A DNA stretch of 64,000 nucleotides, from positions 15,376,001 through 15,440,000 of the forward strand of contig CP158635.1 of the NCBI GenBank assembly GCA_050273025.1, written 5' to 3'. Positions 2,196-64,000 of the stretch are shown here, piece after piece. Origin of the DNA: Cenococcum geophilum. Its lineage: Eukaryota. How positions within the stretch are numbered: the stretch's first letter is position 1; the number at the start of each line of letters is the position of its first letter. The notes under the pieces were generated by a model, which worked only from the letters and a program-made list of their open reading frames with translations, had not been told where the DNA came from and ran no database searches. Position numbers and translations under genes: made by a program.

Positions 2196-2338
2196 TAGCA
2201 GATATTGCAGATATTGCGGATATTACGGATATTGCGGATATTGCAGATATTATAGATATTGCGGATATCGCGGATATTACGGATATTGCGGATATCGCAG
2301 ATATTGCGGATACTGCGGATATTGCGGATATTATAGAT
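2196..2338. repeat. 10-bp subterminal tandem repeat (GATATTGCGG)n of the hAT element
   Basis: About 14 copies of GATATTGCRG with transition variants. Confidence 0.9.
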
Positions 2339-2399
2339 AGGCGTAAGATATTATAGGGTCCCTATCTACCTTTCCCCCCTAACTATATAATAGCTATAT

Positions 2400-3142
2400 A
2401 CTTAAAGAAAAACTACCTATTTCTCTTATAGTTCTTCTCTAATGCTAATTCTTTAAACATTTTGTTTTCTTAAGAGTTTCAGGATCTATCTGCATTCTCT
2501 CCCATAATACTATATAACGTTCTCCTAAAAAGACTTTTTCTAGCTTATTACTTATTACTGGAATTAAGAGAATTTCGATTGCTATAAGCGAGAGCCATAG
2601 CCAGCGTTTTTATTGCTGTTCTTAAGACCACCACTAAAGTGCAGTTGTTAAAATCTTATATAGCGTCTTAGAGATAAAGTCCTTATACTTATCTTAACTT
2701 TTTAATCAAAACATTATACTATTAAGATCCTCGGCAATTTTATTAAACTCGTTAAGGTTTTAAGCTAGAGCTAGCTTTTTATATAATGATATACTTTTAG
2801 GCGTAGAACTCCTATTCCGATATCTTTCCCAAAGCTCTTTAATGCTATTAAGTATAGGCTTATGCCACTCCTTCTTCTAAACCTACTTAATATATCTTAT
2901 ATAACGGGCTAAATAAAGAATAAGTGCAGCGGCGTAAAGGGGCAAGTTATCTATTTTATGGTAATACCTATTAAAGGTATTCTAAGCATTTTTAATGTGT
3001 TTAGAGAACTCTTTATTAGATATATACTCCTTCTATTATATATTAGCTAGGAAATAAAGAGGGGAGATAGACTAACCTAGGATTTATTAAGGTGCTTAAT
3101 TATAACATCTATTATAAAAAGCATATTCTTAAGCGTTGCTTT
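2400..3142 (-). pseudogene. hAT transposase, C-terminal part (dimerisation domain), RIP-inactivated
   Basis: Minus-strand reading KATLKNMLFIIDVIIKH and RWLWLSLIAIEILLIPVISNKLEKVF, a RIPed form of the hAT-C motif RWPRLS.MA..ILSIPA.S..PERVF. The 3' coordinate is approximate. Confidence 0.85.
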
Positions 3143-3407
3143 ATCCCTTTGTCTGGTAAAACGGACTTTTTGTATTAGGCGCTTTAGGCGCTCCTGCCTG
3201 GGTTAGCATGCTGCAGGCACCCTAGCTAGCGTGATTTTATTAGCAAGCCTCACCAAAGCGCGTTAATATTGCGATGCCGATAAAATACTGCAGAAGGCCA
3301 CCACCGAAAACACCTATTTTTTTTTTAAGGAAGTTGGGTAAAAAGTCGCGATATATGACGTTATAACTGTAGGTTTCCGCCCTTCCTCCATTAACCAGCT
3401 GCTGACT

Positions 3408-3728
3408 ATATAGGAAAATCCCCTACTAGAGTCCTCCCCTAAACTACCGCTACCTATCCACTTTATACGCGTTCTTAACGTTAATAAGGATAAGCTAGTA
3501 AAGGACCAGCTTAAGGTTATAAGGGAGGACGTGTAGTATACGTTAAATGAGATATATTAAGTGCTATAGGTCATTAAACGGTTTAGTTAGCGGTTATTTG
3601 GTATAGAGGATTAATTAAAGGCGGTAGAGAAGGACTTAAAGGAGGCTAAGTAGGACGCTGCACTAAAGGCTTAGTTAGCTTTAGAGTCTCAATATTAGGG
3701 GCGTAAGGAAGTAGAGGGCTTAAAATAG
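3408..3728 (+). pseudogene. Second, convergent ORF of the piggyBac-like element (about 106 aa, acidic, coiled-coil-like), RIP-inactivated
   Basis: One frame in which every stop is TAA/TAG (revertible to CAA/CAG). It reads ..KDQLKVIREDV*YTLNEIY*VL*VIKRFS*RLFGIED*LKAVEKDLKEAK*DAALKA*LALE with heptad-like periodicity and ends 4 bp from the transposase stop. Confidence 0.5.
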
Positions 3729-3794
3729 TTACCTAGTCGTCGCCTACTAAATAGAAGTTGTTAAAGTACTAAAGGCATAGAGGAAGCCTATAAG

Positions 3795-4172
3795 TGTAAG
3801 AGGCCAGCCTAACCGGAACGTATGATTATCTAATTAATAGTGTTACCGGTAAGTAGAAGGTAAGTTAAAGGTAAATAAAAGGTAAGTTAAAGGTAGAATA
3901 AGTTTTATATATTAAAGGATAAATGCTTCTAACTACTTCTATTTAGAGACTAATTGCTGGTTCTTCTCTAGAGGAGAACCAGCTCCCTATATAATCTTTT
4001 TAAGACACTAGTAAAACCCTTTACCCCTTATCTATCTAACTGTGTCTTTTAGAACGTAGATAGAATATAGGTAAGACCTCCTTCTGGAATATAGATAAGA
4101 CCTCCTTCTAAAACATAGATAAGACCTCCTTCTGTCTTATCTAATATATACCTTCTAGGGAATTCCGTTATA
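3795..4172 (-). repeat. 3' LTR (378 bp)
   Basis: TGTAAGAGGCCAGCC...AATTCCGTTATA. Contains three 24-bp GAATATAGATAAGACCTCCTTCT-type internal repeats and matches 13957-14334. Confidence 0.95.
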
Positions 4173-4767
4173 ATTACCTCCCCTTTAAGGGTCTTAGTCC
4201 TCCAAGACTTCACCTTTACTAAGCTTTTATAAAGTTCCGGCTAAAACCACTAGGGAAATTCTTAGTGGAAAGGTACTTTATAATGCGGCTTATAGCTAGT
4301 TCTTTACTAGCGTAGAACCTTACTTTATCCTTAATTCCTCTGCTCTTTTCCTACTATAGTTCCCTATAATACCTTTATAATGGAACTAAAATAATAATAA
4401 TAAAAATTGGATAGGATTTACCTTTCTTATTATAAGAGTTTGTTATAAGTTAATCTAGAGGTTGTCCTATATAACGCGTCTATAAGCTACCATCCCTATT
4501 TACCTAAAATAGATTCTGATAATAACGTTTTTATTTTAATTTTCTTCTAGTTTATAAGCTGTCGCCTCCTACGCGTCTTTTTATTAATAACACCATTCGT
4601 CTCGTCTTTTAGCAGACTGTTTCCTCTATATCTCCGCTTTTAGCTTCCGTATCTCTAGCTATTCTTTTATAGCTGCTTTATTCTCTTCTTATAATACGTC
4701 TATAAGTAATAGGATCCCTACCTTATCTTCTTATAATAATGCTAACTTCTTAGAGTATTCTCTTATA

Positions 4768-6050
4768 ATAGCTCGTGGTCCCCAGACCGGCGGCAGTATT
4801 ATTAATCTCCCGGTGACGCCCTAGACAGCGTCTATTGCTTCTACGGCAGTTTCCCTAAAATACTATTGTTGCTACATTTATACTCTTACGTAGAATCCTT
4901 CCTATGTCTGTAAGATGCCTCGCTCTAGCGAAAATAAATCTAAGTACTTCTATTATCGCAGTAGGAGAAAGACCTGCGTCCTAGTATTTCCTATTCCGTC
5001 CTATTCTAGATTTCGCTAATTATACTAGATCCCCGCTATCTATACGCATAAGACTTATAGGCTCTAATACGCCATCTAAGATTTCCGCCGATATCCTAAT
5101 AGTGACAGGCGGGGACAGAAGGTGTCTTCCCTCGTTTATAGACTCTTTAATTCTATAAGGGTTTCCACTACTATAGAGACGTAACGTTCTTGGATATATA
5201 GTGTCTAGGAGCGTATATGCGAACAGCTCGTCTTTAATAATAATATTTATACTCTTACGCGGGCTACTTTAGCCAGGTGAGTTTCTCTAGTAACTTACTT
5301 AGGAACTATGCTAACTCCTTTAGCTAATATCTCTCTAATCCCTGCTTAGACGCTAATTTAGAACCTAGGGATACTAAGGATAGCAATAAAGGTTAAGATA
5401 AACGTTCTCCTCGCCAGTCTCCCGCCCGTGCTGGTCCTTCTAGTACCCGTTATTCTAAGAAGAATATTAGTAGAAGTGCTAATGCTTCTAGGGATAGAGG
5501 AGCTAATAATACCGTTAATAATAACGTTAAGATAGAAGAGGAGGCTCCTATTACTGTTGCTAATATTTAAGTTATTACCTGGCTCTTTCCTTCTTATAGA
5601 ATAGCTTTATATAGTGCCTCTTAGGTGCCTTTAGGATGCCCTATTATTAGGAATTAACTTTATACTTTGGGGATGCCTTTATTCTAAGCTTTAGTAACAA
5701 TCTATATAAACGTAGTGCACTACTATAATCCCTATATATAATAAACGGGTAGTATTCCTATAGGTGCCTTATAATTCCTTAAAATTTCTAATTCTTTATA
5801 GGCTGTCCTTTTGCTTCTCTTCGTACTATTAACTCTACTGCGTATCTCCGGTGCTAGGCCAAATACTCTCCTTTTATCCCTAGGGGATCTTGCTAAATCC
5901 CTAAGGCCACTTCTTATAGTGCTACTGCTCCTTTTTATACAGCGTCTTCTTTAAATAGTATCCCTAGTAGTTCTTCTATAGATCCTTATAGGCTTCCTCT
6001 TACAGGATTCTAGGATCCCTATTATAATAGTAAAACGTTTCCGTTTTTAA
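4768..6050 (+). pseudogene. Antisense, two-intron accessory gene of the Gypsy element (N-terminal Cys/His-rich motif, acidic and Pro/Ser-rich tail), RIP-inactivated
   Basis: Introns 4984-5028 (GT..GCTAAT..TAG) and 5277-5323 (GTGAGT..GCTAAC..TAG) join three segments in frame. All stops are TAA/TAG. Confidence 0.7.
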
Positions 6051-9000
6051 TGCCTATACTTAATTTTATAGTTTTAATTTGCGGGGTCTTCCCTATTACT
6101 TTACCTGTGGTATATCCGGAACTATTTCTAAGTCTTTACCTTTAGTTCTTAAGAAGGTTTTAATTATAGTATTATATTTTGGCTAAAGGTACTCCTTAGG
6201 TTCCTAACTATTATGCGCCTAGGAGTATCCTTCCTAATAAACTAAAAATTCGCGCTTCTTCTAGCGCCATCTTTGGTCTAAAATGTCTTCTATATTCCAT
6301 TCCAGTTCCCTATTAATTTCGCTAAGTAGGGGCGGTTCTGCACTATCTTTTCTCTAATATAGCTCTAGCAAGGAAACATGAAATATAGGATATATTAGAT
6401 AAGATTTCGGTAATTCTAATTTATAGGCTTGGTTTCCTTTAGTTTTCTTAACTATCTTAAAGGGTCCGAGCTACTGGTAATCCAGCTTCTTCTTAATACG
6501 TTTTATTTGGATATTTTTTATAGACAGTAAGACTTCATCTCCTATCTTGAATTCTTTCGGCATATATTTTTTATTATAGTACCTTTTTTACACGGCCTAG
6601 GCGTCTAGTAAGTGCTTTTTAAGTTCCTCTCTGCGAATTCTTATTTGCTTAATTCTTTTGGACATTACTAGTGCCTCTTTTTTAGGAACGATGTCCTTAA
6701 TATTTTAGGGGTTATTTGCTTTTACCCCAAACAATGCTTTATAAGGGGTTATTTTTATACTACTGTGGATGCTTATATTATATACGTGCTACGCTAGAGC
6801 TAACTACAATGTCTAATTATTCTGTTGATAATTGATATAGTAGCGGAGGTAGTATTCCAATAACGCATTTAGACGCTCTATTTACCCATCTGTTTACAGG
6901 TAGAAGGTAGTGTTTATCCTTTACCGTATTTTTAATAAGAGATAGAATAAAGACTAAAATATACTGTTAAATACGGTGCCTCTGTTAGATATAATTCCCC
7001 TTAGCATGCTAAATGAGAGCCACCGTTCTAAAAATAGGTCTACTAATTCTGCTGCTGTGATCGTTATTATAATAGTAAAGTATTTTAAAAACTTTGTATA
7101 CCTGTTAACGATTACTAGGATAGCGTTAGCAACCTCTCTAGTTCTTATTTTAGTAGGGGGTAAGCCTATAATAAAATCTATTGTTAATTCTAATATAGGT
7201 CCCTATGGAATAGGAAGTACTAATAACTTGCTGTATAGGCGATGCCTAGATATCTGTATTCTTTAGCACGTATTATACCTTAATATATAGTCCTTAACCT
7301 CTTTAGACATTTTGTTCTAAAAGTATTTCCTTTAAACAGCCTTAAGGGTTCTGTTAGTACCGTAGTGACCCCTAAAAGGGTTGTTGTAGAAGACCTTTAG
7401 AATTTCGTCTTAAATCGCTTGGTCCTTTAAGACATATGCAGTACCCTTAAAGCGCAACAAACCCTTTTAGTCTTGCTGCTATAGCTTCTTAGTAACTCTA
7501 GCTAAGTTAGTCTCCACTATATCTTTCTACCTCTCCCTAGAGGCGAAGGCGTCCCTTTATTAAGCTTAAAGAAGAAGATCCGGAAAGGTTTTGTGTAGAT
7601 TACTTACTTCTATTTTACCTACCGCCATTATAGACTTAAGGCGTGGCATAAGACGTTTTAAACTATTAGTGCTAGCAAATTCTCTTACCGTTGTGTAGTA
7701 TGCTATGCTGCAAATAGGTATCTTGCCTATCCCCCTTAGATCTAAGAACTCGTAGCTAATACGCCGTTAAGTTAAAGGTGCCGCGACACCTCTAGTATAT
7801 CCTATAGAATTCTCGCTAATTTTAGGGTACGCTAACTTTGTGATGTCTGCTTGGTCTATAACCTAGTCTATAACTATATCCTACGGCTCTATAATTATGT
7901 TGCTTCGTAGCTATATCGCTAGGACCTCTACCCTATTATAAAATTCTATAGTTCTAGGGAAAGAGTCTTCTTTCTTCCTAAGCAAATTTTGCAATATGGG
8001 GATTATTTCCCCTATACTATCCTAGATCCTCCCTGTCTTATAATCCGGACATCTTAATAACCTATTAGTAGGATTTGTCTTTTCTAGGTGGTACATAATC
8101 TTAAAATTATACTGTAATAGTGCCTTTGCCTATTTAACTTGTTAACTGCTTAACATCTTTATAGTTATAAAGTATTCCAGGTTATTATAGTCTGTAAGGA
8201 CTTTAATAGGATAATTGCTTCCTATATAATAATGTCACTAGTGCTTTATTACTGCGATTATCGTGAGTAGCTCCTAGTTATATATTATGTAACACTACTC
8301 TATAGGGGTTATTTTCCTTAACTAAAACGCTATAGGATGCTATTTTCCGTCTTTTAATTGAGATATAATTGCCCCTAGGGTAAAGCCGGATGCATCCGTT
8401 TTAAGGTATATATATAGCTCCTAGTAGAAGTGTATTAGGATAGGCGCCGATATAAATAAATCCTTTAACTGGTCTATAGCCTGCTTAGCAGCTTCCCTAA
8501 ATATAAAGGGTCTTAACTTCCTGCCATTCTTAAATCCTTTTAGTAGATTGGTAATTGGGAGTATTACTTATAAGTAGTAAACAATAAACGTTTAGTAGAA
8601 GTTTGCCGTGCCTAAGAAAACCTATACTTCTCTAAATATTATAGGGTAGGGCCATTTCCTAATAGCGTCTACCCGACTTTTCTCTATTAACACTTTGTTA
8701 ACGCTAACGATAAAGCCTAAAAAATTAATGCTAGTAGTATAAAACGTATACTTTTTTAGGTTTATATAGAGCTTGTATTCCCATAGTCTTTCTAATACTA
8801 TTTGCACGTGGTATATATATGCTTTATAGTTATTAAAGTAGACTATAATGTTATTAAGGTAGACTATATATATCGTATCTAATAGGCCTAATAATACCTT
8901 ATTAATATAGGCCTGAAATATTGCTAGTGCGTTAGTGAGCCTAAATAGCATTACTAGGTACTTAAAGTGGCCGTACCGTATTTAGAACGCCGTTTTCTAT

Positions 9001-9332
9001 TTATCACCGGCTTTAATCCGGATTTAATAGTATGCATCTTTTAAATCCAATTTTATAAATATCTTCGCACCTAACAGCCTATTAATAAGCTCCCCTATTA
9101 AGGGTAATAGGTAGCAATTCTTTATAGTAATCTTGTTTAGCGCCCGATAGTTAATATAGAGGTAAAGGGTCCTATCCTTCTTGGGTATAAATATAATTGG
9201 CGCCCCTGCTAGGCTTATAGAGGGCTAAATCTATCCTCTTTAAAGATTGTCTACTATATATTAACGTAGTACCGCTAGCTTATTTTCTAATAGGTTATAC
9301 AGCGGTCTAAAAGGAGGTTGTTTATCCCCTAT

Positions 9333-9598
9333 CATCAGGAAATTTTTTTTTGGGCACGTTGTTGCAAACGAAAATCGGGGTCTGCAAAACCTGCGTAAGT
9401 CGCAAATTTGGCAATTTGCGGCGATTTGCAGCAATTTGCTACAAACACATAGGCTACCTATGCACGCGCCTGCCTTATCTATGTGTTTGTAGCAAATTGC
9501 TGCAAATCGCCATAAATTACCAAAATTGCGACTTACGCAGGTTTTGCAGACCCCAATTTTCGCTTGCAACAATATGCCTAAAAAAAAATTTCCTAATG
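9333..9598. repeat. 266-bp foldback (MITE-like palindrome) forming the left end of element A
   Basis: Arms of about 120 bp: 9333-9452 is the near-perfect reverse complement of ~9478-9598, including a second TIR copy (AAAATTTCCTAATG) ending at 9598. Confidence 0.92.
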
Positions 9599-10718
9599 CA
9601 GAGGCTCTGCATGAGGCTCTATATAAAGCTCTGCATGAGGCTTTACATAAAGCTCTGCACGAAGCTCTGCACGAAGCTCTGCACGAAGCTCTGCACGAAG
9701 CTCTACACGAAGCTCTACACGAAGCTCTACACGAAGCTCTACACGAAGCTTTGCACGAGGCTTTACACGAGGCTCTACACAAAGCTCTGCGTACAGAGGC
9801 TCTGCACGAGGCTCTACACGAAGTTCTGCACGAATTCGTGCACGAAGCTCTGCACGAAGCTCTACACGAAGCTCTACACAAAGCTCTACACGAAGCTCTA
9901 CACGAAGCTCTACACGAAGCTTTGCACGAGGCTCTGTACGAAGCTCTACACGAAGCTCTACACGAAGCTTTGCACGATGCTCTACACGAAGCTTTGCACG
10001 ATGCTCTACACGAAGCTTTGCACGATGCTCTACACGAAGCTCTGCGTACAGAGGCTCTACACGAAGCTCTACACGAAGCTCTACACGAAGCTCTGCACGA
10101 AGCTCTGCACGAAGCTTTACACGAAGCTTTGCACGAGGCTCTACACGAGGCTCTACACAAAGCTCTGGGTACAGAGGCTCTGCACGAGGCTCTACACGAA
10201 GCTCTGTACGAAGCTCTGCACGAAGCTCTACACGATGCTCTACACGATGCTCTACACGAAGCTTTGCACGATGCTCTACACGAAGCTCTGCGTACAGAGG
10301 CTCTACACAAAGCTCTACACGAAGCTCTGCACGAAGCTTTACACGAAGCTTTACACGAGGCTCTACACGAGGCTCTACACAAAGCTCTAGGTACAGAGGC
10401 TCTGCACGAGGCTCTACACGAAGCTCTATACGAAGCTCTGCACGAAGCTCTACACAAAGCTCTACACGAAGCTCTACACGAAGCTCTACACGAAGCTCTA
10501 CACGAAGCTCTACGTACAGAGGCTCTGCACGAAGCTCTACACGAAGCTCTGCATAAAGCTCTATATGAAGCTCTACACGAAGCTCTGCATAAAGCTCTAC
10601 GAAGCTCTACACAAAGCTCTACATATAGAGGCTCTGCACGAGGCTCTGCGCGAAGCTCTACACGAGGCTCTGCGCGAAGCTCTGCATACGGAGGCTCTAC
10701 ACGAAGCTCTACACAAAG
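9599..10718. repeat. 12-bp minisatellite (CACGAAGCTCTR)n
   Basis: About 90 units, with periodic 15-bp variants GCTCTGCGTACAGAG / GCTCTGGGTACAGAG. Confidence 0.97.
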
Positions 10719-10888
10719 CCTTTGTGTGTGTGCGCGCGACACACTACTATCGGGTCCCCGCTATATTCCCGATAGCCTCTACACGTGCCTCTGCCAAGTA
10801 TACCCCCTATATACACCTAGGTAGCCACCTCATTTTTTACCCTTCCTTACATCCTCCCTACCTAGGAAGACACCAGAACGACAGCCAG

Positions 10889-11400
10889 CAGACGACCGTC
10901 GCCGGAGCCAGACGACCGTCGCCAGAGCTAGACGATCGTCAGAGCTAGACGACCGTCGTCAGAGCCAGACGACTGTCGCCGGAGCCAGATGACCGTCGCC
11001 AGAGCTGGACGACCGTCGCCGGAGCCAGATGACCGTCGCCAGAGCTAGACGACCGTCAGAGCCAGACGACCGTCGTCAGAGCTAGACGACCGTCGCCGGA
11101 GCCAGATGACCGTCGCCAGAGCTGGACGACCGTCGCCGGAGCCAGATGACCGTCGCCAGAGCTAGACGACCGTCAGAGCTAGACGACCGTCGCCGGAGCC
11201 AGATGACCGTCGCCAGAGCTGGACGACCGTCGTCAGAGCCAGATGACCGTCGCCAGAGCTGGACGACCGTCGTCAGAGCCAGATGACCGTCGCCAGAGCT
11301 AGACGACCGTCAGAGCCAGACGACCGTCGCCGGAGCCAGATGACCGTCGCCAGAGCTAGACGACCGTCGTCATCGCCACACGACCGTCGCCAGAGCCATA
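10889..11400. repeat. 21-bp minisatellite AGACGACCGTCGCCAGAGCYA-type with an internal palindrome
   Basis: About 25 units, some shortened to 18 bp. The core GACGAC-C-GTCGYC is self-complementary. Confidence 0.95.
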
Positions 11401-11475
11401 CGACAACCGTTCGAACGACCAGCCAGCGAACACGATAAACGATTCGATCGATCGATTGAATCAAGGTGACATAGA

Positions 11476-11604
11476 CAGGTAGGCACAGACAGGTAGGCAC
11501 AGATAGGTAGGCATAGACAGACAGACAGGTAGGTAGGTAGGTAGGTAGGTAGGTAGGCAAGCAGGCAGGTAGGCAGGCAGGCAGGCAGGTAGGTAGGTAG
11601 GCAG
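11476..11604. repeat. (AGGT)n/(AGGC)n/(AGAC)n tetranucleotide microsatellite
   Basis: Directly visible run. Confidence 0.9.
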
Positions 11605-13956
11605 ATGATTTAGAGCCTCCGCGAGAGGCTTCCCCTTAACGCCTAAAGTAGATAGCTCTATATTTTATATAGTTATAATATAAATATATTTAAAAGTATA
11701 CTATAGAAATCTATGGAAATATGTGATAATTTGGTTATTATATAATATAATTATAATTTATATAGTTACAATTTGTACAGTTTTTACAATTCGTACAATT
11801 CGTACAATTTGTACAATTTGTATAGTTTTTACAATTCGTATAATTCGTATAATTCGTACAGTTTGCGCACTATTTATTTATAGGGTAGCATTTTACCGCA
11901 ATTTGCTATTAGGTGCTGCAAATTTATTGTAAAACGCGCAAATTGCTGTTAGGGTGCTGTAAACTTGTTGCAAAACGTGCGTTTTGCGCAAATTGCTATC
12001 GACCATATCCACCTGCCGCAACCGTACGGTTTGTGGCAATTTGCCGCAAACCGCAACAACGAGCCCCAAAAAAAATTTCCTGATGATGTCTATTTTATGC
12101 TTAACTAATATAGGGTCGGGTAAGGTTTATACAGCCTCTTTACTAGAAATATCCTCTAAGTCTATATATTTCTGTAAAATCTCTAGTTCCTTAACTACGC
12201 ATAGCCGGATATCCGAAAATGAATATCCCGTGTCCCCATTCTTAGTGTTAAGAGTGGCATATATGGCATATACCCACCCTTCTTCTTATATATGGTTTAA
12301 AAAAGTCTCTTAATCTTTAACTATAATACGTGGTTAAGACTTCCGATGTTAATACAAGGCTAAAGGCCAATTAATGTCCGGATTAACTTGGCAAAGCTAT
12401 AGGTATCCTAAAATAAGGTTATACCCCTTAATTTCTGCGGCATAGAAGCGCATCTCCTATATATCCTATAGACTATCGCGGTCCTAGCTAGCTATGGAAA
12501 AAGCCTGTTCCCTATAGCATAGAATCTAGTAGCCTTTAATGCTTTAAATGGTGCGTACCTATAAGCCGCTAAGGTCTAAATCTAATTCTTTTACTAGTAA
12601 TTAAGAAATAAACCTTATACTCGCGCCGCTATCTATAAGGCAGTCTCGCGTTACCTATTTATTATTAACTTAAATAAAGACAGGAATAACTATATAGCAG
12701 TTTACTTCCTCCTTCTCTTACTAGCCTAGTATAAGGGAGTAAAGATCTACTAGGCTGTCTCTTTTTTTAATTAGGCCGACTCTTACTTCTTCTGCCAATA
12801 GAAGCGGCTTATATGGCCCTTCTTGCCATAGTTATAATAGGTACGTGTCTCCCGGTTCCCCTTCTACGGATTAGGTCTCTACCTATTATTATTTTAGGGT
12901 TAACTAGCGTTGCTCTAGGGCTGTGAGGCCTGCTCGCGTTATCCTTCTGTAGAGTGGTTAGGTCGGAATCTGCCCCTATTATTAAAGCTAGGTCTAGTCC
13001 TACGCTCTTTATTGTTAGCGTCTTGTTCCTTTTACTTACCTAGATGGTCTCTTTTAGCACTCTTAATCCGAGTAGCTTTAGAGATAAGCTTTTCTTAAAA
13101 GGTAGGAATTTCGCCCTTTTCTTATATGGCCTGTTAAATCTTAGGTTGTAGCTTAGTAAGTAGCTAGTGAAGTTATATAGCGTTATCCTATAGATCTAAG
13201 TAGGGTATATTGTCTTCTAGTTCTTCTAAGTAGTTTATAAACTGGACTATAGTCTGACCATCCCGCTATTTGGCGTTATGGTATCGCTGGTTGTAGTTTA
13301 TTTCTTAATTAGTAGGGTCTTGGACCTAATTAACTAACTAGGTCCTAAGTTCGCTAAATTTAAAGGGTATAGTAAGTTTCTTCTTATAGCGTGTCTATGA
13401 ACTCTTAATAGTACTATGTAGAAAGGTAAAAGTAATTAGTGTCTAATTATACTTATTAGAGTAACGTTTTAGATCTAGCCGAAACTTAATTTCGTATTAT
13501 TAGATAAAATAATTGCAGTTCTAAAGACTATTACTATAGTACTTATTAGGTTCCTTTATACGGAATTTAGGTTTTTTTAACGTTATAGCATAGTATAGCG
13601 TTACCCCTTTGAGTCCGCTTCGTGTCTAGGGTGTCTATACTTCCCCTAATTGTCCTTATAATTGTTCTTGGTAGTTTTAATATACTTATCTTAATTATAT
13701 CTCCAACTCCTTTGTTTTTTTATAGGGTCTTATATAGCGACCGCTCTAATAACTCCCTAGCGGTAATTATTTCTAAAGGTCTTATAAGGTTAGACAGACT
13801 AGCCGTAGCTTCTTTATAGGAAGAGGGAATACGCTCCTCTAAGGAGACTCTTTAAGCCTCTTATGGTGAGGGCGTTGCTTTATAGGGTACAGGAGTATAG
13901 TTTGTTATTATTAATTAATAGCCGTACGTTCCTAACGGATTATAAACGATTAGAAT

Positions 13957-14334
13957 TATAAGAGGCTAGCCTAACCAGAATATATAATTATCTAATTAAT
14001 AGTGTCACTGGTAAGTAAAAGGTAAGTTAAAGGTAAATAGAAGGTAAGTTAAAGGTAGAATAAGTTTTATGTATTAAAGGATAAATGCTTTTAACCACTT
14101 CTATTTAGAGACTAATTGCTAATTCTTTTTTAGAGGAGAACTAGCTCCCTATATAATCTTTCTAAGACACTAGTAAAACCCTTTACCCCTTATCTGTCTA
14201 ACTATGTCTTTTAGGACGTAGATAAAATATAGGTAAAACCTCCTTTTAGAATATAGATAAGACCTCCTTTTGGAATATAGATGAGACCTCCTTCTATCTT
14301 ATCTGATATGTACCTTCTAGGGAATTCCGTTATA
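13957..14334 (-). repeat. 5' LTR (378 bp)
   Basis: TATAAGAGGCTAGCC...AATTCCGTTATA. The differences I checked against the other LTR are C/T or G/A transitions. Confidence 0.95.
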
Positions 14335-14726
14335 ATAAGCCTTATATTTATATACTATTTACCTAACCTTTACTATAAGCTTCTTTACCTCCTTCCATCT
14401 ATATATCTAGCACTTTAGTAGGCTTTTATAGCCTTACTTCCTTATAAAGCTTTTAATAGAATGGTAAGTTCGCGTCTTATACCATTAAATTGTAGGCAGT
14501 GGGGTTTTAGCTATAACGTAGGTGGTTTTTTAATTCGTTTTATTTTTATAACCAGGCCCAATACTAGATTAATATTACCTATATTTTAGTAAGTTTTGAC
14601 AAAGAAGACGCTTAGTATCGTGCTTATTTAGGCCTATCTTTTAACTGCCTATAATAATAAGGTTCTATTATCGGGAAAATATTCGCAGGATGAGATTTAA
14701 GTAGACTTTAGTTTTCGCGTTTCGCG

Positions 14727-15122
14727 TAATTAATATATAATTTAACTAACTCGATACGCAATTAACTAACTTAACACGCAATTAACCAACTTAATATATA
14801 ATTTAACTAACTTAATATATAGTTAACCTACTTAATATACAATTTAACTAACTTAATACGCAGTTGACCTACTTAATATATAATTTAACTAACTTAATAC
14901 GCAGTTAACCTACTTAATATACAATTTAACTAACTTAACACGCAGTTAACCTACTTAATATGCAATTTAACTAACTTAATACGCAGTTAACCTACTTAAT
15001 ATACAATTTAACTAACTTAATACGCAGTTAACCTACTTAATATATAATTTAACTAACTTAATACGTAATTAACCTACTTAATATATAATTTAACTAACTT
15101 AATATGTAGTTAACCTACTTAA
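14727..15122. repeat. 21-bp minisatellite with an alternating 42-bp higher-order unit
   Basis: CAATTTAACTAACTTAATACG alternating with CAGTTAACCTACTTAATATA. Confidence 0.9.
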
Positions 15123-15263
15123 TAACTTTAAAAGCTAACTATATATTTCTTAACGTGCGATTAAAGTAAAGTTATATACTATATATTTAACTATTATATA
15201 TAATCCTATATAATCTTATATAATCTTATACAATCTTATATAATCTTATAGTCTTATTACTTA

Positions 15264-15727
15264 AAGGCTCTACACGAGGCTTTATATAAAGCTTTACGTA
15301 CAGAGGCTCTATACGAAGCTTTATATAAGGCTCTTTATAAGGCTCTATATAAAGCTTTGCATATAGAGGCTCTGTATAAAGCTCTATATAAAGCTTTATA
15401 TAAAGCTCTATACAAAGCTCTATATAAAGCTCTGCACAAAGCTCTATACGAGGCTCTATACGAAGCTCTACATAAAGCTCTATATAAAGCTCTACACGAG
15501 GCTTTATATAAGGCTCTGCGTAAGGCTCTACGCGAAGCTCTACGTATAGAGGCTCTGCATAAGGCTTTGCGAGAAGCTCTGCGTATAAAGGCTCTGCACG
15601 AGGCTTTACGAGAAGCTCTACGTATAAAGGCTCTATACGAGGCTCTGCGAGAAGCTTTGCGTATAGAGGCTTTATACAAGGCTCTGCGCGAAGCTCTATA
15701 TATAAAGGCTCTATATAAAGCTCTATA
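15264..15727. repeat. RIP-mutated copy of the 12-bp minisatellite
   Basis: (TATAAAGCTCTA)n variants of CACGAAGCTCTG, followed by the same unique spacer TATCGGGTCCCCGCTATATTCC as at ~10748. Confidence 0.9.
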
Positions 15728-15860
15728 TCGGGTCCCCGCTATATTCCTAATAGCCTCTACACATGCCTCTACCCTATATAACTACCTTATTTTTTACCCT
15801 TTCTTCCTTCTTTATATCCTCCCTACTTAGGGAGGCACTAGAACGGCAGCTAGTAGAGAA

Positions 15861-17000
15861 CCGTTGCTAGAACTAGATAACCGTCACTAGAACTAGATAA
15901 CCGTTACTAAAACTAGATAACTATCGCCAGCTAGACGACTGTTACTAGAACTAGATGACTATTACTAGAACTAGACGACTGTTGCTAACTAAATAACCGT
16001 TACTAGAACTAAATAACCGTTACTAGAGCTAGACGACCGTCGCCAGAACTAGATAACCGTTGTTAGCGCTAGATAACCGTCGCTAGAACCAGACGACCGT
16101 CGCTAGCTAGACGACCGTTACTAGAACTAGACGACCGTTGCTAAAGCCAGACAACCGTCGCCAGAACTAGACGACCGTCGCTAGAACTAGACGACTATTA
16201 TTAGCCAGATAACTGTTACTAGAACCAGACGACCGTTACTAGAGCCAGACGACTGTCACCAGAACTAGACGACCGTTGCTAGCGCTAGACGACCGTCGCC
16301 AGAACTAGACGACCGTCGCTAGCTAGACGACCATTACCAGAACCAGACGATTGTTGCCAAAGCTAGACGACCGTCGCCAGAACTAGATAACCGTTGCCAG
16401 CGCTAGACGACCGTCGCCAGAACTAGACGACCGTCGCTAGCTAGACGACTGTTACCAGAACCAGACAACTGTTGCTAGAGCTAGATGACCGTCGCTAGAA
16501 CTAGACGGCCGTCGCCAGAACCAGACGACCGTTGCTAGAACTAGACGACTGTTGCTAGCTAGACGACCGTTACCAGAACCAGATAACCGTTGCCAGAGCC
16601 AGACGACCGTCGCCAGAACTAGACGACCATTACCAGCGCTAGATAACCGTTGCTAGAACTAGACGACCGTCGCTAGCTAGACGACCGTTACTAGAACCAG
16701 ACGACCGTTGCTAGAGCTAGACGACCGTCGCTAGAACTAGACGACTGTTACTAGCGCTAGACGACTATTGCTAGAACTAAACGACCGTCGCTAGCTAGAC
16801 GACCGTTACTAGAACTAGATAACCATTACTAGAGCTAGATAACCGTCGCCAGAACCAGACGGCCGTCGCTAGAACTAGACGACCGTCGCCAGAACTAGAC
16901 GACCGTTACTAGAACTAGACAACTATTGCTAGCCAGACGACTATTACTAGAACTAGATAACCGTTGCTAGAACTAAACAACTGTCGCTAGAGCTAGACGA
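15861..17000. repeat. RIP-mutated, longer copy of the 21-bp GACGACCGTCG minisatellite
   Basis: AGACGACCGTCGCCAGAACT units interspersed with 17-bp variants. Confidence 0.92.
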
Positions 17001-17063
17001 TAATAACTAGCTAGCTAACACTATAAACGATTTAATTAATTAATTAAATTAAGGTAGCATAAA

Positions 17064-17525
17064 CAGGTAGGTATAAATAGGTAGATGCTAATAGGTAGGT
17101 AGATATAGATAGGTAGGTAGATATAGATAGGTAAGTAGATATAAATAGGCAGGTAGATATAGATAGGTAAGTAGATGTAGATAGGCAAGTAGATATAGAT
17201 AGGTAGGTAGATATTAATGGATAAGTAAATATAAATAGGTAGGTAGATATAAATAAGTAGATATAAACAAGTAGGTAGATATAGATAGGTAAGTAGATAT
17301 AGATAGGTAAGTAGATATAGATAGGTAAGTAGATATAGATAGGTAAGTAGATATAGATAGGTAAGCAGATATAGATAGGTAGGTAAATGTTAACGAGTAG
17401 GTAAATATAGATAGGTAAGTAGATATAAATAGGTAGGTAAATGTAAACAGGTAGATATAGATAGGTAGGCGATGTAGATAGGTAGGTAGATATAAATAGG
17501 TAGGCGATATAGGTAGGTAGGTAAG
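17064..17525. repeat. 16-bp repeat (AGGTAAGTAGATATAG-type) derived from an AGGT microsatellite
   Basis: Directly visible, in the same position relative to the 21-bp array as 11476-11604. Confidence 0.85.
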
Positions 17526-19972
17526 TTAATAGGTATAATAGATAGGTATAAAAGAACCATCGCTATATTATATTAAATTATCTAAAATAATAATATTTAT
17601 TTTGCTAGCCTTATAAATAGCTTTAAAATAGCTTTTATTTATTTAAAATATGCTATTAGTATAAAAGAGGTAAATATAATTATGGTTACTAAATACGTAG
17701 ATTACTAGCAGGTTGCGCGTAGGTTACGCGCAGGTTACGCGCAGGCTGCGCGCAGGCTGCGTGTTAAAAAAACACGACATAGGCTAGTCGGTCGAGTTGC
17801 CAAATGACCTTAACTACGCGCTAATTGCGTTAACTACCAACCATTGAGGCCATTAAAAGGGTACCATATTTTGCCGATGATGCTAATTATATACGGAAAC
17901 AGTAGTGGGTTTAAAGGTGCTTCCTTAATATCTAGAAGATCTTCTTACTAATAATATAGGTGTTAATTATAGCCGTATTAAGCGCCTAGAAGAATAAGGG
18001 TAGCTAGGTGCGTATAGTAGTAATCTAGGTAGTATAGTAGCTTTGAAGCTAATTATAAATATTAACGCCGCCTATTTAGTTATTGTAGTTAATAGAGAGC
18101 CTAGGTAGCGTTAACTTCTTAATTAAATTATTGCCCTAAACATTAGCTACTAGTTTCTTAAGGAAGGAATTATATACCTATAGCCGACGTTAATTAACTT
18201 TATTAACGTCCTTATTACTATATAGGTGAATTATCGTTAAAAACCGTACTAAATTCTTATCCTATTATATAATTAAAAGCACCAAATTAAATACGCCGAT
18301 AACTACTCCTGTAATAAAGTTAAATGGTAGCCTTTCCTTCTTTTTATTAGCCCTTTTATACACCTTTAGATAGTCCTTTAAGTTTAATTAAGCTGTGCTA
18401 GCTATAGTAATTCTAAGTTGTTAAAGCACCTAGAGTAACGGAATATTTGTAAAGTAGTTATCTAAAAATAGGCAAAATTAACGAGCCTAAAGAGGAAGCT
18501 GTTAGGTAAGGTAGAGGACGTACTTAGAGGTATTTAAGAGAACAATATCTTAATAATCTGTTTGAGAAGGAAGCCTAAAAAAGTAGCCAGGTAAGGTAAA
18601 TATAAAGCTATAGCAATATCTATATTAACAAAGGCTTATTATCTTAAAGCCCTCTAGTACTAGCTTACTAGGTAATTTAATTATAGCTATAGATTGTCTA
18701 GTAAACCTTACTATTATCTTATTAAAGCTAACTATAGATTTAGGTATAATATACTTTCTAAACGCCTTGCCCAAAGGAGTTGTTAATGGCTTAATTTTCT
18801 TAAAGACTTAACGTTTAACGCCCTCTAGTGGAGGTGGTGAGATATAAAAGAAGCGCTTAAGTTACTCCTATCTTTTTAGGCCTATAAATAAGCTAATTAA
18901 GTGTCTAGGATATTTAGAATCTACGGCCTAAAGATCTAGCACCTAAGTGCCTTTAAAGACGCCTATATAGATAATAAGCCCTACCTAAATTATTAATTCG
19001 CCAGCGGAGGTCTCCTTTTATACCCGTAATTGTTTACCCATATATTATCCCAATTGGTAATATCCGCCAGCATTTTAAAAGGCTGCATATAGGTTTATAT
19101 TAATCGCGAGCTTCTTAAATATACTAACACTAAAGAATAGTAGAAATACTTAAATTGGCAGGTTCTATCTAGATCTATATCCGCTAGACACTATACTAAT
19201 CTAATCTGCTAGCGTATAATAAGCATAGCGCTTATAATCCTTATTTTAATTAGAAAGGTTATTAGATTTAACGTCCGCGTTAATGCTACTAATAGGCTTA
19301 CTAGTACGCCGAGCGGCGAATATTAACTTATTTAGAAGGTTAATAACTTTAAAATCTAGTTTAGAAATAGCAGCTATAGGCTCCTATAAAGTAGGAATAG
19401 TAGGAAGGCCTATTCTTATAACTTCTTTAGCTAATAGCTCTGGTAGTTTAGTCTTATCTACCTTATCTGCCTTATCCTTAGCAGTCTTACTGCGGGCCTT
19501 AAAAGAGGCTTTTAATTCGTCCTCGATATCCTCTGTCTAGCTACTTAGCTAAGCCTCCACTGCCTACTGCGTAGCTACTGCCGACACGCTATCGTGTGTA
19601 TACTGCGTTACTTAAAAGGATTGTGAATAGGACTCCTAGGCTTAAGGTACTTTTAGAGGCTTTGGAAGCTTTAGAGCCAAAGGAGTATAACTTTTTTTAG
19701 GCGGCATAAGGACGATATTTTACTGGCAATTTAATAATTAAATAGATGGCAACAATATTAAAGCTTTTAGATTAACTATACTAAATATTATAGGCTTCCT
19801 GGCCACGTCGCTACTATTTACCGCAATATTTAAGTGTTAATAAGGCGCTAGTACCCTTGCTACTGCACTAACTAGAGGCTTTAACACTAAGCTCTATATA
19901 GTATAGAGCCTCTAGATTGGCTTATAAGGCGTATATATACAAAAAGTCTATAAAAACTTGCCAGATAAAGGG

Positions 19973-21310
19973 ATATCCCTAGCATTTTAGGGTTACCTAA
20001 TAGAATATCTAAAGAAAGCTTTTTATTATATAAAGCGCCTCCTAGTCCTTTAGACTAAGATAGTTCTTTTTAAGCGTATTAAAGTTACGCTTAGTATATA
20101 TATTAAGGGCAGACTCTTTCTAAATTGCTATACTAAGTATAAAATACCAGCTATTCTATTTCGTATGATTATTAAGCGGAATTCTTCTCTCTATAAGACT
20201 TTTAAACTCCCTTATACGGCTAGCTAAGCTGCATGTATATACAGTAATATTATAAAGCTTTCTAAGTGCGCTAAGTTTCCGAAATGAATTACTCTTCTCT
20301 TTCTCCTCTTTTAGATCTAGCTCTTTTCCTTCTTTATATAACTTAATATTATTAAGACTAATTAAGTTTTTAAAGAGGAAAGCCTATATAGTAAGGTTAA
20401 GAATATAACCCTAATAGCGGATCCGTTAATAGACGGGATTCTATTTAATTCCTTCTTCCTAGAGAAGCTAGTCGCTTATTATATAATAGAGCTTATTATT
20501 TGCAGTATAGTTATCGGATATAACGGCACCTAGCTTTTATATAATCCCGTAGTCCTTAAGCACTAGAAGAAGAGTATTCTATTACTTATTCCCGCTATAA
20601 GAGGCTACCGTATAAAGGCCAAGAAGAGCATTTATAAGCTTTTCCTAGCTATTAATAAAATGGCCGCAAATTATAAGGAGAAGGTAATTATTTAGAGAGG
20701 TCTAGATATTAATGGAGAGATAAATACTTATTAGTGCAGACTGCAGCCTCTTTTATATAATATCCTTTTGCGATAGCTATAAGTTATAGATCTTTTTATT
20801 AACTGCTAAATAGGCTATAGTTACATGGCCATCTACTTTAGGATTAATTAACTATAGAAGAACATAGAACTCTAGCCACTTAACCATCCAAAATAGTAAG
20901 TTTTATATAATAATTAATGTAATAAGGGCCTTATTAATAACTTCCTTATTTAGGACCGCTCGGAGTACTTCTAAATCTAGCTCTTCTATCTCGTTTTAAG
21001 ATAACGCTTTAAGGTAAAGGTCTTTTAATTAATTCTATATTGCTTCTTTTATATAACTAGTTTTAGGCTTAACTATAATGCTATGCTTTAACGCCAAGTA
21101 ATTTCGGAAGTTAGAAGTTGACTATACAGCATACGACTCTGTGTAGTGTTTACAATAAAATAAAAGATAGGCTTTTTTATTTTGTACGGGCTCATTACTG
21201 CCTAGTGGACGGGTATACTCCTATGTTAAAAGAGCTAAGCAACCTCTTGTATTTTTTGATTTAGAGGTATTAATAGAGTCGAGAGCTTCTGATTCCACTT
21301 CTAAAGCCAT
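19973..21310 (-). pseudogene. hAT transposase, N-terminal part (BED finger and DDE core), RIP-inactivated
   Basis: Reads LFYCKHY(C)TESY..TSNFRNY(H)LALKH (BED finger) near 21170-21080 and LSLKD*EALYIIKSFL*IFY*VTLKC*G up to the piggyBac junction. Confidence 0.85.
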
Positions 21311-21871
21311 ATTTTGTACGATAATAAAGAAGAAAAAGGCGACGAAAATTTATTTGGGGTATGCCAAGACTTATCGCGATAAGATTTATCCAAAACCACC
21401 CTGATCCTAAGTACCCCCTGCATCTGAATGGAATTATGGATTAGGTTCTGGTTCTGCTGAAAATCGCGGATTGGTAGTGAGCTCTTATGCTTAAGAAATT
21501 TGCTTGCTCCTTAGATTTTAAACAGCGTAGCGATTTCGGTCCAATGAGGCCCAGGAAGGCTTGGTTCATCAATATACGCGGGTCGCATTATTTGATTTCA
21601 TAATGCTCGTTATTTTAATCGCCAAAGACGAGCCTACGTCTGAATGGAAATTCATTTTCCCATTCCATGAACTCTTCATAGTGCGTCCACGCCTTACGGA
21701 TACCGTCATCCAATATACGCCGCACCTCTATGCATTACGACAGCAACACTAAGCGCACTGTACTAGCTACTGAGATGTGTAAGCTGTGAAACAGACGTAT
21801 ACCATATGGTGAGTGGAGAGGTATTTGAAGATGTAGTTATGATCACAGCTGTTGTGACCTTGCATATGGGG

Positions 21872-53736: not shown

Positions 53737-55413
53737 TCAGCCCTCCAAACCCGCCCCTTCTAAACCTTCTACCTCTCCTTCCACCAACTCCCCCAAAAAC
53801 CCCTCTTCCCCCTCCACAGTCCGATGAAACCCGCCCCCAACCCCATCACTCACCCAGCAGACTCCCAACGCACACTCGATCCGCCGCAACCGCCACGCCC
53901 ATAGCGCTAGCAGCGCCTCCTCCATCTCGCGCGTCCAGGCGGGAGCGAGATCTGGGTGCTGCACCAGTCTGTTCTGCAGGCCGCGCGGGAGAGAGGTGAA
54001 AGGGACGCCGCTTTGGGCAAAGACGCGCCAGGCGAGGGCGGGAGAACCGGCGCGGAGGAGGGCGTGGATGAAGACTGCGGGGGCGTGGAGAGGGTGCCGG
54101 TGTTCTATTTCTGGTCCTGGTTCCGCTTCCGCTGCTCCGACTTCCGCTGCTTCGACTTCGACTTCCGCTTCTGCTTCCGCCTCCGTTTCCGCCGCCATCG
54201 TCCCCCTTTCCCCCTCCGGCATGCCGCCACCAGCCCCCCGCTTCCCTCCTCGCCCAACCCACCCCTCCCATTCTCTCCACACCCCTTCCGCATCCCCGAG
54301 CCTCCCGAGCGCCCGCACCCACGCGCCCAGATACCACCAATCCGCCCGCCTCCCCTCCATCCAAAGCCCCAAATGCCACGGCTCCCCCCCGGCCCCTTCC
54401 ACCCCCTCAACCCCAACCACCGCCCTGACCCACTCCCCCCTCATTCCCCCCTCCCCTCCCTCGCATCCCGCTTCTTCCGCCTCCGCCGCGACCGCCCGCT
54501 CCGCGACCGCCCGAACCACCTCCCCGAACAGCCGCGGCGGCAGCGCTGCCCGCCGCGCCCGCAGCGCCACGAGGTGTCTCCGCAGCGCCGAAAGCGTGGG
54601 CCTCGGCGCCGCTGCCGCCATGTGCAGCCCCGCGTACAGCAGCGGCGTCGGGGGCGGTATGTCGCTAGCGCGGAAGCGCGTCAGGAGCGCTGTCAGGAGG
54701 GCGGGTAGGCGGGTGTCGGCGGGGTGGGCGCGGTGCAGGTGGAGGAGGGCGCTGGATAGGGGGCCGGCGAGGGAGGGGGAGGCGAGTGCGGTGGTGAGGC
54801 GGGGGTCGGAGAGTGCGGTGGTGGTGAGGCGCTGGAGGGAGGCGGGGGAGGTGGCGAGGGGCAGTTGGGTGAGGAGGGTGTGCTGGAGGGTTAGGTCGGC
54901 GAGGCGGGTTGGGCCGGGGGTTGGGGGCTGGGAGGAGAGGAGCTGGCGCGCCGTAGTGGAGAGGGCGGCGGTGGTTATGGCGTCGCTTTGCCGTCGGGAT
55001 TGTGCGACGATTTTGGGGGTGCGGTGCCGGTGCCCTGCGGTGGGGGGAAGGATTGCGGTGCGCAATTCGTCCGTGAGGCTGAAGAGGTTGAGTTGTCGGT
55101 TTAGAGCGTCTCGAAAATCCGGCGGGATGTCGTTGATTTCGGGGGTTTCTTTGGCTGGCTTGCTGGAAACACGAAAGCGTCTATCATCCTGATTTCGAGC
55201 GTTAGGTATGGTGCTATTCTGGCGCCAAGTATGAGGTTGTTTCCCACTCTCCCTGAGAGCATAAGATGGTCTCTCATCCTTACTGCCGCTGTCGGATGCG
55301 TTGTGGGTTGAGAGGGTACGGAGGATTGTCTGTCGCCCACGGGGGGGTTGGCGGGCTATCGAGGGAGCATATTTGCACAGGACGCACACGGAACGAATAG
55401 AGCCCAATGGCAT
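53737..55413 (-). CDS. Hypothetical 558-aa protein, probably mitochondrial and helical-repeat-like
   Basis: Single long ORF. The N-terminus MPLGSIRSVCVLCKY..RTLST resembles a mitochondrial targeting peptide. YLGAWVRALGRLGDAEGVWREW is PPR-like. Divergent from SYF2. Confidence 0.65.
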   Translation of the reverse strand: MPLGSIRSVCVLCKYAPSIARQPPRGRQTILRTLSTHNASDSGSKDERPSYALRESGKQPHTWRQNSTIPNARNQDDRRFRVSSKPAKETPEINDIPPDFRDALNRQLNLFSLTDELRTAILPPTAGHRHRTPKIVAQSRRQSDAITTAALSTTARQLLSSQPPTPGPTRLADLTLQHTLLTQLPLATSPASLQRLTTTALSDPRLTTALASPSLAGPLSSALLHLHRAHPADTRLPALLTALLTRFRASDIPPPTPLLYAGLHMAAAAPRPTLSALRRHLVALRARRAALPPRLFGEVVRAVAERAVAAEAEEAGCEGGEGGMRGEWVRAVVGVEGVEGAGGEPWHLGLWMEGRRADWWYLGAWVRALGRLGDAEGVWREWEGWVGRGGKRGAGGGMPEGERGTMAAETEAEAEAEVEVEAAEVGAAEAEPGPEIEHRHPLHAPAVFIHALLRAGSPALAWRVFAQSGVPFTSLPRGLQNRLVQHPDLAPAWTREMEEALLALWAWRLRRIECALGVCWVSDGVGGGFHRTVEGEEGFLGELVEGEVEGLEGAGLEG

Positions 55414-63390: not shown

Positions 63391-64000
63391 TATAGGGAAG
63401 ACGCGCCTTGTCAATCGGAAGTCCGTGCGCAGATTTTAGGTGAGGAAAACTTGTGTAAAGATTGATCTATGAAGAAAAAGAGACTAGATATACATGAGGT
63501 AGGTGGCAAAGACTGACGTCGACACTACGTCATTGCAACCTGATCGACACGCCTTTAACAATCGATATAACTGATATAGCTTTAAAAGCTTCTTTAAAGG
63601 GCCGTCTTTAACAAAATTAAAGCGGGGCTTATAGATATAACACTTGCTACACTTAATTACAGTAAGATCTGCTATATTTATAATATATATAGCAGTATTA
63701 ATAGAGGTGTCAACAAAAAGGAAGACGCAATACTAGGGTATTTTAATGTTCATAATATTTTGATGTCCGTCACGTGGATTCTGCCATAACTTACCGCGCG
63801 CAACTTTTTTTTTAACCAATCAGAAGCAGGCGTGGCGGGGGTTTGAATTCTAGGTCCCGAAAATATAGACCACTCGTACCTAAGGCTAATCAGAAGACGG
63901 AAAACACCGCATACTCTCCTTCATAAATCTTTCTCCATCACGTTTGCTCATTTAGTTATGGTATTATAGATAATCTAACATGGACCATTTCGAGAAATTG

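Follow-up and report, generated by a model that had tools for sequence, protein, structure and literature searches.

The window analyzed here, a stretch of 64,000 nucleotides from Cenococcum geophilum (GenBank assembly GCA_050273025.1, contig CP158635.1, positions 15,376,001 to 15,440,000), contains a piggyBac-like element of 16,828 bp that occupies positions 3145-19972 on the minus strand and lies inside a hAT transposase gene. At two independent insertions, that of the window element and that of a relative at the metagenome locus L035, the net gain of DNA is the element plus exactly 2 bp. Judged by its sequence, the window element is probably a dead copy, mutated by the fungal process of repeat-induced point mutation (RIP; C-to-T and G-to-A), of a fungal cut-and-paste transposon of the piggyBac superfamily, and it appears to belong to a large and old branch that inserts with a 2-bp stagger at AT, preferably within T-AT-A.

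Element Ends and Empty Sites

The CCCTTT...AAAGGG termini described in an earlier note on this DNA were found as stated. With the transposase as reference, the 3' terminal inverted repeat (TIR) of the element is CCCTTTGTCTGGTAA (3145-3159, plus strand), and its inverted partner at the 5' end, CCCTTTATCTGGCAA, extends up to 19972 (19958-19972, minus strand); both were placed by exact matching and by alignment of the two ends. Short TIRs with CCC/GGG ends are a trait of the piggyBac superfamily. When the 15-base end motif was sought across the window at no more than 3 mismatches, five matches were obtained, only two of which are exact, namely the inverted pair at the element ends; the remaining three require 3 mismatches, and shuffled sequence gave a mean of 5.08 matches. 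The total being at chance level, weight was placed on the exact pair at both ends and not on the count. A second block, GACTTTTTGTAT, extends the alignment of the ends past the first 15 bases, with a spacer between the blocks that differs by 5 bases; this layout resembles that of canonical piggyBac elements, in which terminal and subterminal repeats are separated by unequal spacers (PMC5381638).

On the plus strand, the left boundary reads ...AAGCGTTGCTTTAT/CCCTTTGTCTGGTAAAACGGACTTTTTGTAT..., with the slash before 3145, and the right boundary ...ATACAAAAAGTCTATAAAAACTTGCCAGATAAAGGG/ATATCCCTAGCA..., with the slash after 19972. The flanking 4-mers are TTAT (...GCTTTAT/CCC) and ATAT (GGG/ATATCCC), again as first reported, being neither TTAA nor identical. 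Another trait of the superfamily, the use of TTAA as target and its duplication as 4 bp, is lacking in the window element. The duplicated AT has its left copy at 3143-3144 and its right copy at 19973-19974, as seen in the flanking sequence and in contigs that join 3142 to 19973, where two letters fit on either side.

These contigs were found among Logan contigs from four sequencing runs (X1, X5, X6, and X16), one probably of the source strain and three filed under another organism label, which were placed on positions 2300-20800 at 80% likeness. Fourteen of them (5, 3, 4, and 2 from the respective runs) skip 16,830 bases (ends AT..GG) with 2 shared letters, and the hAT copies without the element read ...GCTTT-AT-ATCCC..., i.e., T-AT-A. 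A skip of this size with 2 shared letters means that insertion added 16,828 bp and one AT; the skip would have to be 16,832 if 4 bp had been duplicated, if TA had been duplicated next to TCCC ends, or if AT belonged to both ends. The net gain of 2 bp that had been predicted for empty sites was thus observed, with no 4-bp duplication. A control is built into the same table of joints, where the joint of a nested Ty3/gypsy retrotransposon (described below) shows 5 shared letters. As a 5-bp target duplication is the size expected for Ty3/gypsy elements, the read-out of the joints is validated.

The second insertion came from a search in which flanks of at least 40 nt from 35 insertions were compared with the window and with all of the metagenome loci introduced below. 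L035 alone yielded an empty site, both of its flanks matching three other places in the same locus. A model with a single AT scored best at two of these paralogs (131 vs. 126 and 122; 125 vs. 123 and 116), and the model without AT scored lowest at all three. The match of the left flank of L075 to L064 was rejected as a further empty site; a single insertion seems to be represented there on two contigs.

As a separate observation on L035, its element lies in one arm of a larger structure (L035:1634-6500) with 16/16 matching inverted ends 4.9 kb apart. The target repeat of the element is present four times in the locus, and the larger structure may be another transposon.

The Transposase and the Flanks of Its Relatives

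The transposase begins near 19707 on the minus strand. One of the three minus-strand frames of 17600-19974 matches the Pfam family PF13843 (DDE_Tnp_1_7) with E 4.4e-18 over profile positions 2-349 of 349 (approximately 19158-17956), and the remaining two gave no Pfam matches. This core match substantiates the earlier identification of a piggyBac-type transposase. The motifs quoted in its support do make the enzyme recognizable, but their letters had been idealized: the window reads NKIIVRFTRQS, KLVLEGFK, and IGGVNIYN, and when the region was searched for the idealized forms EGFK alone was found. Similarly, the C-terminal Cys-rich domain that had been listed is present in intact relatives but has no recognizable counterpart in the window copy; the motif is unreadable at 14336-14665, where the C-terminus of the transposase is expected, and the domain matched no Pfam model. 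Two of the three catalytic Asp residues, the first and the third, are replaced by Asn, which is what RIP would produce, and with its many stop codons this copy is inactive. Differences between copies in the sequencing runs number approximately 960-1,380 for each of C>T, G>A, A>G, and T>C, compared to at most 111 for any type of transversion, and this excess of transitions fits RIP.

A word-based protein search with the RIP-degraded transposase scored 7,998 candidates, none of which reached E ≤ 0.001. With a full HMMER search, 1190 relatives were recovered at E ≤ 0.001, the best full-length ones being 33-36% identical to the degraded query. The solved transposases piggyBat and T. ni piggyBac were matched with E 1.7e-20 and 5.6e-12, respectively. 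One relative, P0002, matches PF13843 with E 2.7e-60, and its three catalytic Asp residues align with those of piggyBat. The Asp triad is found in seven of eight long open reading frames (ORFs) that were aligned, and the Cys/His pattern of the C-terminal tail is conserved in the alignment of relatives. The eighth ORF, of 702 amino acids and likewise piggyBac-like, has Glu in place of the first catalytic Asp (VAIEEIMV); the element encoding it (L078:280-2385) has TIRs that match at 16/16 positions.

Metagenome contigs were scanned with the alignment of relatives, resulting in 80 loci, 21 of which belong to the same family as the window copy (63-78% identical in protein). A first scan for inverted ends, applied to all 80 loci and blind to their flanks, identified 34 elements with both ends, of which 13 belong to the close family and 21 are distant, every one with the arrangement AT/CCC (or CTCC)...GGG/AT; the ends are CCC in 32 and CTCC in 2. 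The 13 close-family copies are all degraded, with a longest ORF of no more than 165 amino acids. A second scan covered the 46 loci without a call from the first and kept AT or TTAA flanks only, and is biased in this respect; of its six candidate pairs, five passed a TIR check (at least 10/14 matching positions) and one, L016, failed at 9/14. An accepted two-ended call is absent for 41 of the 80 loci, many of whose contigs stop near the gene, such that they are uninformative rather than negative.

With the window copy added to the 39 metagenome loci, AT was found on both sides of all 40 elements, TTAA on either side of none, and identical 4-mers at none. The second scan also encountered GGG/TTAA sites in L026 and L044, and a TTAA-flanked 5' end is listed in neither locus. 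The consensus T-AT-A that had been proposed from the single copy is borne out by this collection: position -3 is T in 30, C in 7, and A in 3, while position +3 is A in 30, G in 6, and T in 4. The target tetramers are TATA (21), TATG (6), CATA (6), and others (7), and no strong preference is seen at positions beyond these. The AT flanks extend to relatives only approximately 30-35% identical in protein, far outside the family of the window copy. Seven distant elements have ORFs of 530-727 amino acids; all three catalytic Asp residues are retained in six of them, and six end in the tail C..C...C..C..LC...C...H. The elements at L002 and L029 have an uninterrupted ORF with all three catalytic Asp residues, show no RIP, possess inverted ends matching at 16/16 positions, and carry the same AT flanks. 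The genes that flank the distant loci (NACHT-like/ankyrin proteins, Abp2, and GH81) look fungal. Taken with the gain of 2 bp at empty sites, the AT flanks at 40 of 40 insertions support the suggestion of the earlier note that a fungal piggyBac lineage has an altered cleavage geometry.

Alternative Readings, Mechanism, and Related Systems

It had been argued that removal of the element together with 2 bp restores the frame of the interrupted hAT gene. At the junction this holds, giving GGA TAT AAA GCA ACG CTT in agreement with the empty-site contigs, but the frame shifts 21 codons later. With 4 bp removed, for which a frameshift had been claimed, the upstream frame would match the hAT frame far downstream. 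Given this change, the hAT frame is not decisive alone and was dropped as the main argument. A candidate phase-0 intron of 44 nt at 3033-3076 on the minus strand (GTTAGT...CTAAT...AATAG) would reconcile both frames.

An ordinary 4-bp duplication (ATAT, TTAT, or TTAA) with flanks that mutated later is the reading to which this far-downstream register lends itself. Between the flanks in the window, TTAT and ATAT, there is a single mismatch, and odd flanks of precisely this kind (TTAT, ATAT, ATAA, and ATAG) were ascribed to mutation by Bouallegue et al. (2017; PMC5381638). It is nonetheless very improbable: the empty-site contigs skip 16,830 and not 16,832 bases, matching 4-mers occur at none of the 40 insertions, RIP consists of transitions and is incapable of converting TTAA to TTAT or ATAT, and the same flanks accompany two elements without RIP, L002 and L029, which have uninterrupted ORFs and 16/16 matching inverted ends. 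Hardly more credence can be given to the notion that AT is part of the element at both ends (ATCCC...GGGAT) with nothing duplicated. The inverted repeat is indeed extended by AT in every copy, but one AT remains at the empty sites, whereas under this arrangement the skip should be 16,832 and AT should be missing from the L035 paralogs, and the corresponding model is the lowest-scoring at each of those three. The ends might also derive from two different copies or from a rearrangement, in which case the flanks would be uninformative on any single insertion, and the span of 16.8 kb, five times the usual length of the family, invites that thought. Against it, the codons on the two sides of the insertion are neighbors in one hAT gene, and it is at exactly this point that hAT copies are joined; the surplus length is made up of three nested pieces, each of which is spanned by contigs from other copies, and once these are subtracted 3,068 bp belong to the element itself, such that an origin from two copies is scarcely believable.

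Blunt insertion without any duplication, of a true element TCCC...GGGA between A and T of TA^TA, is a different matter. As the earlier note correctly pointed out, it is indistinguishable from a 2-nt stagger, the filled (T-A-T-CCC...GGG-A-T-A) and empty (TATA) sites being formally identical. The T beside CCC and the A beside GGG are invariant in 40 of 40 elements, as element ends would be, and cut-and-paste elements without duplications are on record in the form of Spy (PMC4122938). However, the outer A and T are equally invariant (40/40), so that blunt insertion needs a strict target in addition to strict extra end bases, and the ends of canonical piggyBac are described as CCC...GGG, with the attacking 3'-OH borne by the terminal G (PMC7351741, PMC5381638). 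Because the homologous piggyBac end is this terminal G, blunt insertion was ranked below the 2-bp stagger and is considered unlikely.

A number of points weigh against the 2-bp stagger itself. Sequence alone does not separate it from blunt insertion of an element ending in T...A. The change of the hAT frame 21 codons past the junction requires the putative 44-nt intron (3033-3076) or an indel. The empty sites are paralogous repeat copies and not the orthologous pre-insertion locus; the contigs that join them are short (20-45 letters on the shorter side), were placed at 80% likeness, and have the table entry "between: not known." The third L035 paralog gave a near tie (125 vs. 126), transitions there creating ATAT, and five of the 40 flank pairs come from the scan restricted to AT or TTAA flanks. 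Finally, a 4-bp offset was reported to be dictated by where the active sites lie in the piggyBac dimer (Chen et al., 2020; PMC7351741), and hence an offset of 2 bp would need a real structural change.

If a 2-bp stagger is accepted, the chemistry may be as in piggyBac, by analogy with which the 3'-OH would reside at the terminal G. Strand transfer would then occur with an offset of 2 bp, compared to 4 in piggyBac, 5' of the A in both strands of T^AT^A, and hairpins would presumably form on the transposon ends 2 nt into the flank. Since AT is self-complementary, the 2-nt AT overhangs left by excision would match each other, making seamless repair to TATA possible. We lean toward the broader view that a whole ancient branch in filamentous fungi, possibly comprising most fungal piggyBacs, uses a 2-bp strand-transfer offset at (T)AT(A), maybe still with seamless excision. 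A parallel of a kind exists in PiggyMac of Paramecium, a domesticated piggyBac-derived nuclease that acts at a conserved dinucleotide and leaves one copy of it behind; there, the stagger is 4 nt centered on TA, the ends are joined by host repair, and there is excision only, with no integration.

With canonical piggyBac (T. ni piggyBac and piggyBat) the branch of the window element shares PF13843, the Asp triad, the C-terminal Cys/His domain, CCC/GGG ends, unequal spacers, and a target that is short, palindromic, and composed of A/T only; it differs in having a 2-bp AT within T-AT-A instead of the 4-bp TTAA, a distant protein, and a fungal host. By descent the transposase is thus of the piggyBac superfamily, while by the criterion of TTAA and 4 bp the element is not a canonical piggyBac. 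A 2-bp palindromic A/T duplication is also typical of the Tc1/mariner elements, but theirs is TA and not AT and their transposase is of an unrelated family. Membership in this group was rejected; the duplication is AT (TA with TCCC ends needs a skip of 16,832), and the sole Pfam transposase family of the element is PF13843.

The statement of the earlier note that no description of such an element was known proved too strong. Belfiori et al. (2013; PMC3864998) described Ti_tr1 of Tuber indicum, a piggyBac-like element that encodes a PF13843 transposase, lacks TTAA, and is flanked by a 2-bp "TA" duplication; its classification was left open. Both elements are fungal and share these features; Ti_tr1 differs in that its duplication is reported as TA, its inverted repeats are of 52 bp, and it is a single element (PMC3864998). 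For the window copy, the skip of 16,830 excludes that TA was duplicated next to TCCC ends, and the "TA" of Ti_tr1 may be the T-A of T-AT shifted by one base; the two probably represent the same phenomenon. The 4-mers TTAT, ATAT, ATAA, and ATAG recorded beside single elements and attributed to mutation in the survey of Bouallegue et al. (2017; PMC5381638) are those expected if NTAT/CCC...GGG/ATAN is read in fours; a 2-bp duplication was not recognized in them at the time. In a search of the literature, neither an AT duplication nor a clade-wide 2-bp rule for piggyBac was found described, the truffle paper and the 2017 survey being closest; Repbase and Dfam were outside this search, and an entry may exist there. 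The finding is therefore partly anticipated in print and not wholly new.

The piggyBac elements are both defined and made useful by TTAA targeting, a 4-bp duplication, and footprint-free excision, and piggyBac is said to be alone in targeting TTAA precisely (PMC7351741). A diverse natural branch with piggyBac ends and a piggyBac enzyme, but with a 2-bp duplication at another palindrome, would mean that these defining properties can change, and it supplies sequences for testing which regions of the transposase determine the offset and recognize the target. If the proposal is true, members with uninterrupted ORFs (L002 and L029) constitute a natural test of the determinants of the piggyBac offset, and a second target specificity would become available for footprint-free genome engineering. 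The odd flanks of the 2013 and 2017 papers would gain a single explanation. Annotation pipelines that require TTAA will mis-handle AT-flanked elements; in one large mining study, the search motif was TTAACC with at most two mismatches allowed (PMC13461360).

Host Gene, Nested Insertions, and Other Window Features

The hAT transposase pseudogene that harbors the element lies on the minus strand in two parts. The upstream part (19975-21649), a long hAT-like frame recognized by eye, ends ...TGC TAG GGA at 19976 and matched no Pfam family. The downstream part (2301-3142) encodes the C-terminal dimerization domain (PF05699, Dimer_Tnp_hAT; E 2.1e-6), by which the host gene is placed in the hAT class. 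The two parts are considered to be one gene because contigs join them. No second copy of either the piggyBac-like element or the hAT gene was found elsewhere in the window. Directly past the 3' end of the hAT coding region, at 2201-2332, there is a tandem array of 14.7 copies of the 9-mer GATATTGCG.

The 16.8-kb span of the piggyBac-like element is attributable to three nested insertions and nothing else. Its own DNA amounts to 3,068 bp, in keeping with 13 related copies of 3,068-3,174 bp, and comprises three minus-strand pieces: a 3' piece of 645 bp (3145-3789), from which other copies continue directly at 14335; a middle piece of 330 bp (14336-14665), delimited by the joints 3789 to 14335 and 14665 to 17880; and the 5' piece (17880-19972) with the degraded transposase, established by the PF13843 match, homology search, and alignment. 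The first interruption, at 3790-14334 on the minus strand, is a RIP-degraded Ty3/gypsy chromodomain retrotransposon recognized by its long terminal repeats (LTRs), its domains, and a contig joint. Its LTRs (approximately 3789-4088 and 13951-14250) are 91% alike, its domains follow the order RVT_1, RT_RNaseH, Integrase_H2C2, SH3_Tf2-1, and Chromo, and the joint from 3789 to 14335, at which 5 letters are shared, omits 10,545 bases in 5, 2, 3, and 2 contigs of the four runs. The order of reverse transcriptase, RNase H, and integrase, the LTRs, and the 5-bp target duplication are those of Ty3/gypsy elements.

Nested within the retrotransposon at 9331-12087 is a tandem-repeat-rich element of 2.76 kb that is rich in guanine plus cytosine (GC) and shows no RIP degradation. 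It has 35-nt inverted ends (94% complementary), reaches a GC fraction of 0.53 within an AT-rich, RIP-degraded region, and is filled by tandem arrays (a 12-mer x91 and a 20-mer x26). The summed contig depth over it is 10-20x that of its surroundings, and it has the appearance of a young non-autonomous element, present in very high copy number, that escaped RIP. The third nested piece (14666-17879) is a RIP-degraded relative of this element combined with a tandem array; it is approximately 70% similar to 9600-11400 with end motifs alike, and the joint from 14665 to 17880 skips 3,214 bases with no shared letters in 2, 1, 1, and 6 contigs of the four runs. The array, at 14762-15124 at the start of the piece, consists of 8.9 copies of a 41-bp repeat with a 92% match.

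Among the remaining features, a neighboring ORF carries a fungal-specific transcription factor domain (Pfam). The 1-kb bin 54001-55000 has a GC fraction of 0.725, compared to 0.25-0.58 in the rest of the window. Positions 61001-64000 form a second AT-rich stretch (GC fraction 0.25-0.35) that holds no copy of the piggyBac-like element or the hAT gene and is probably another RIP-degraded repeat region.

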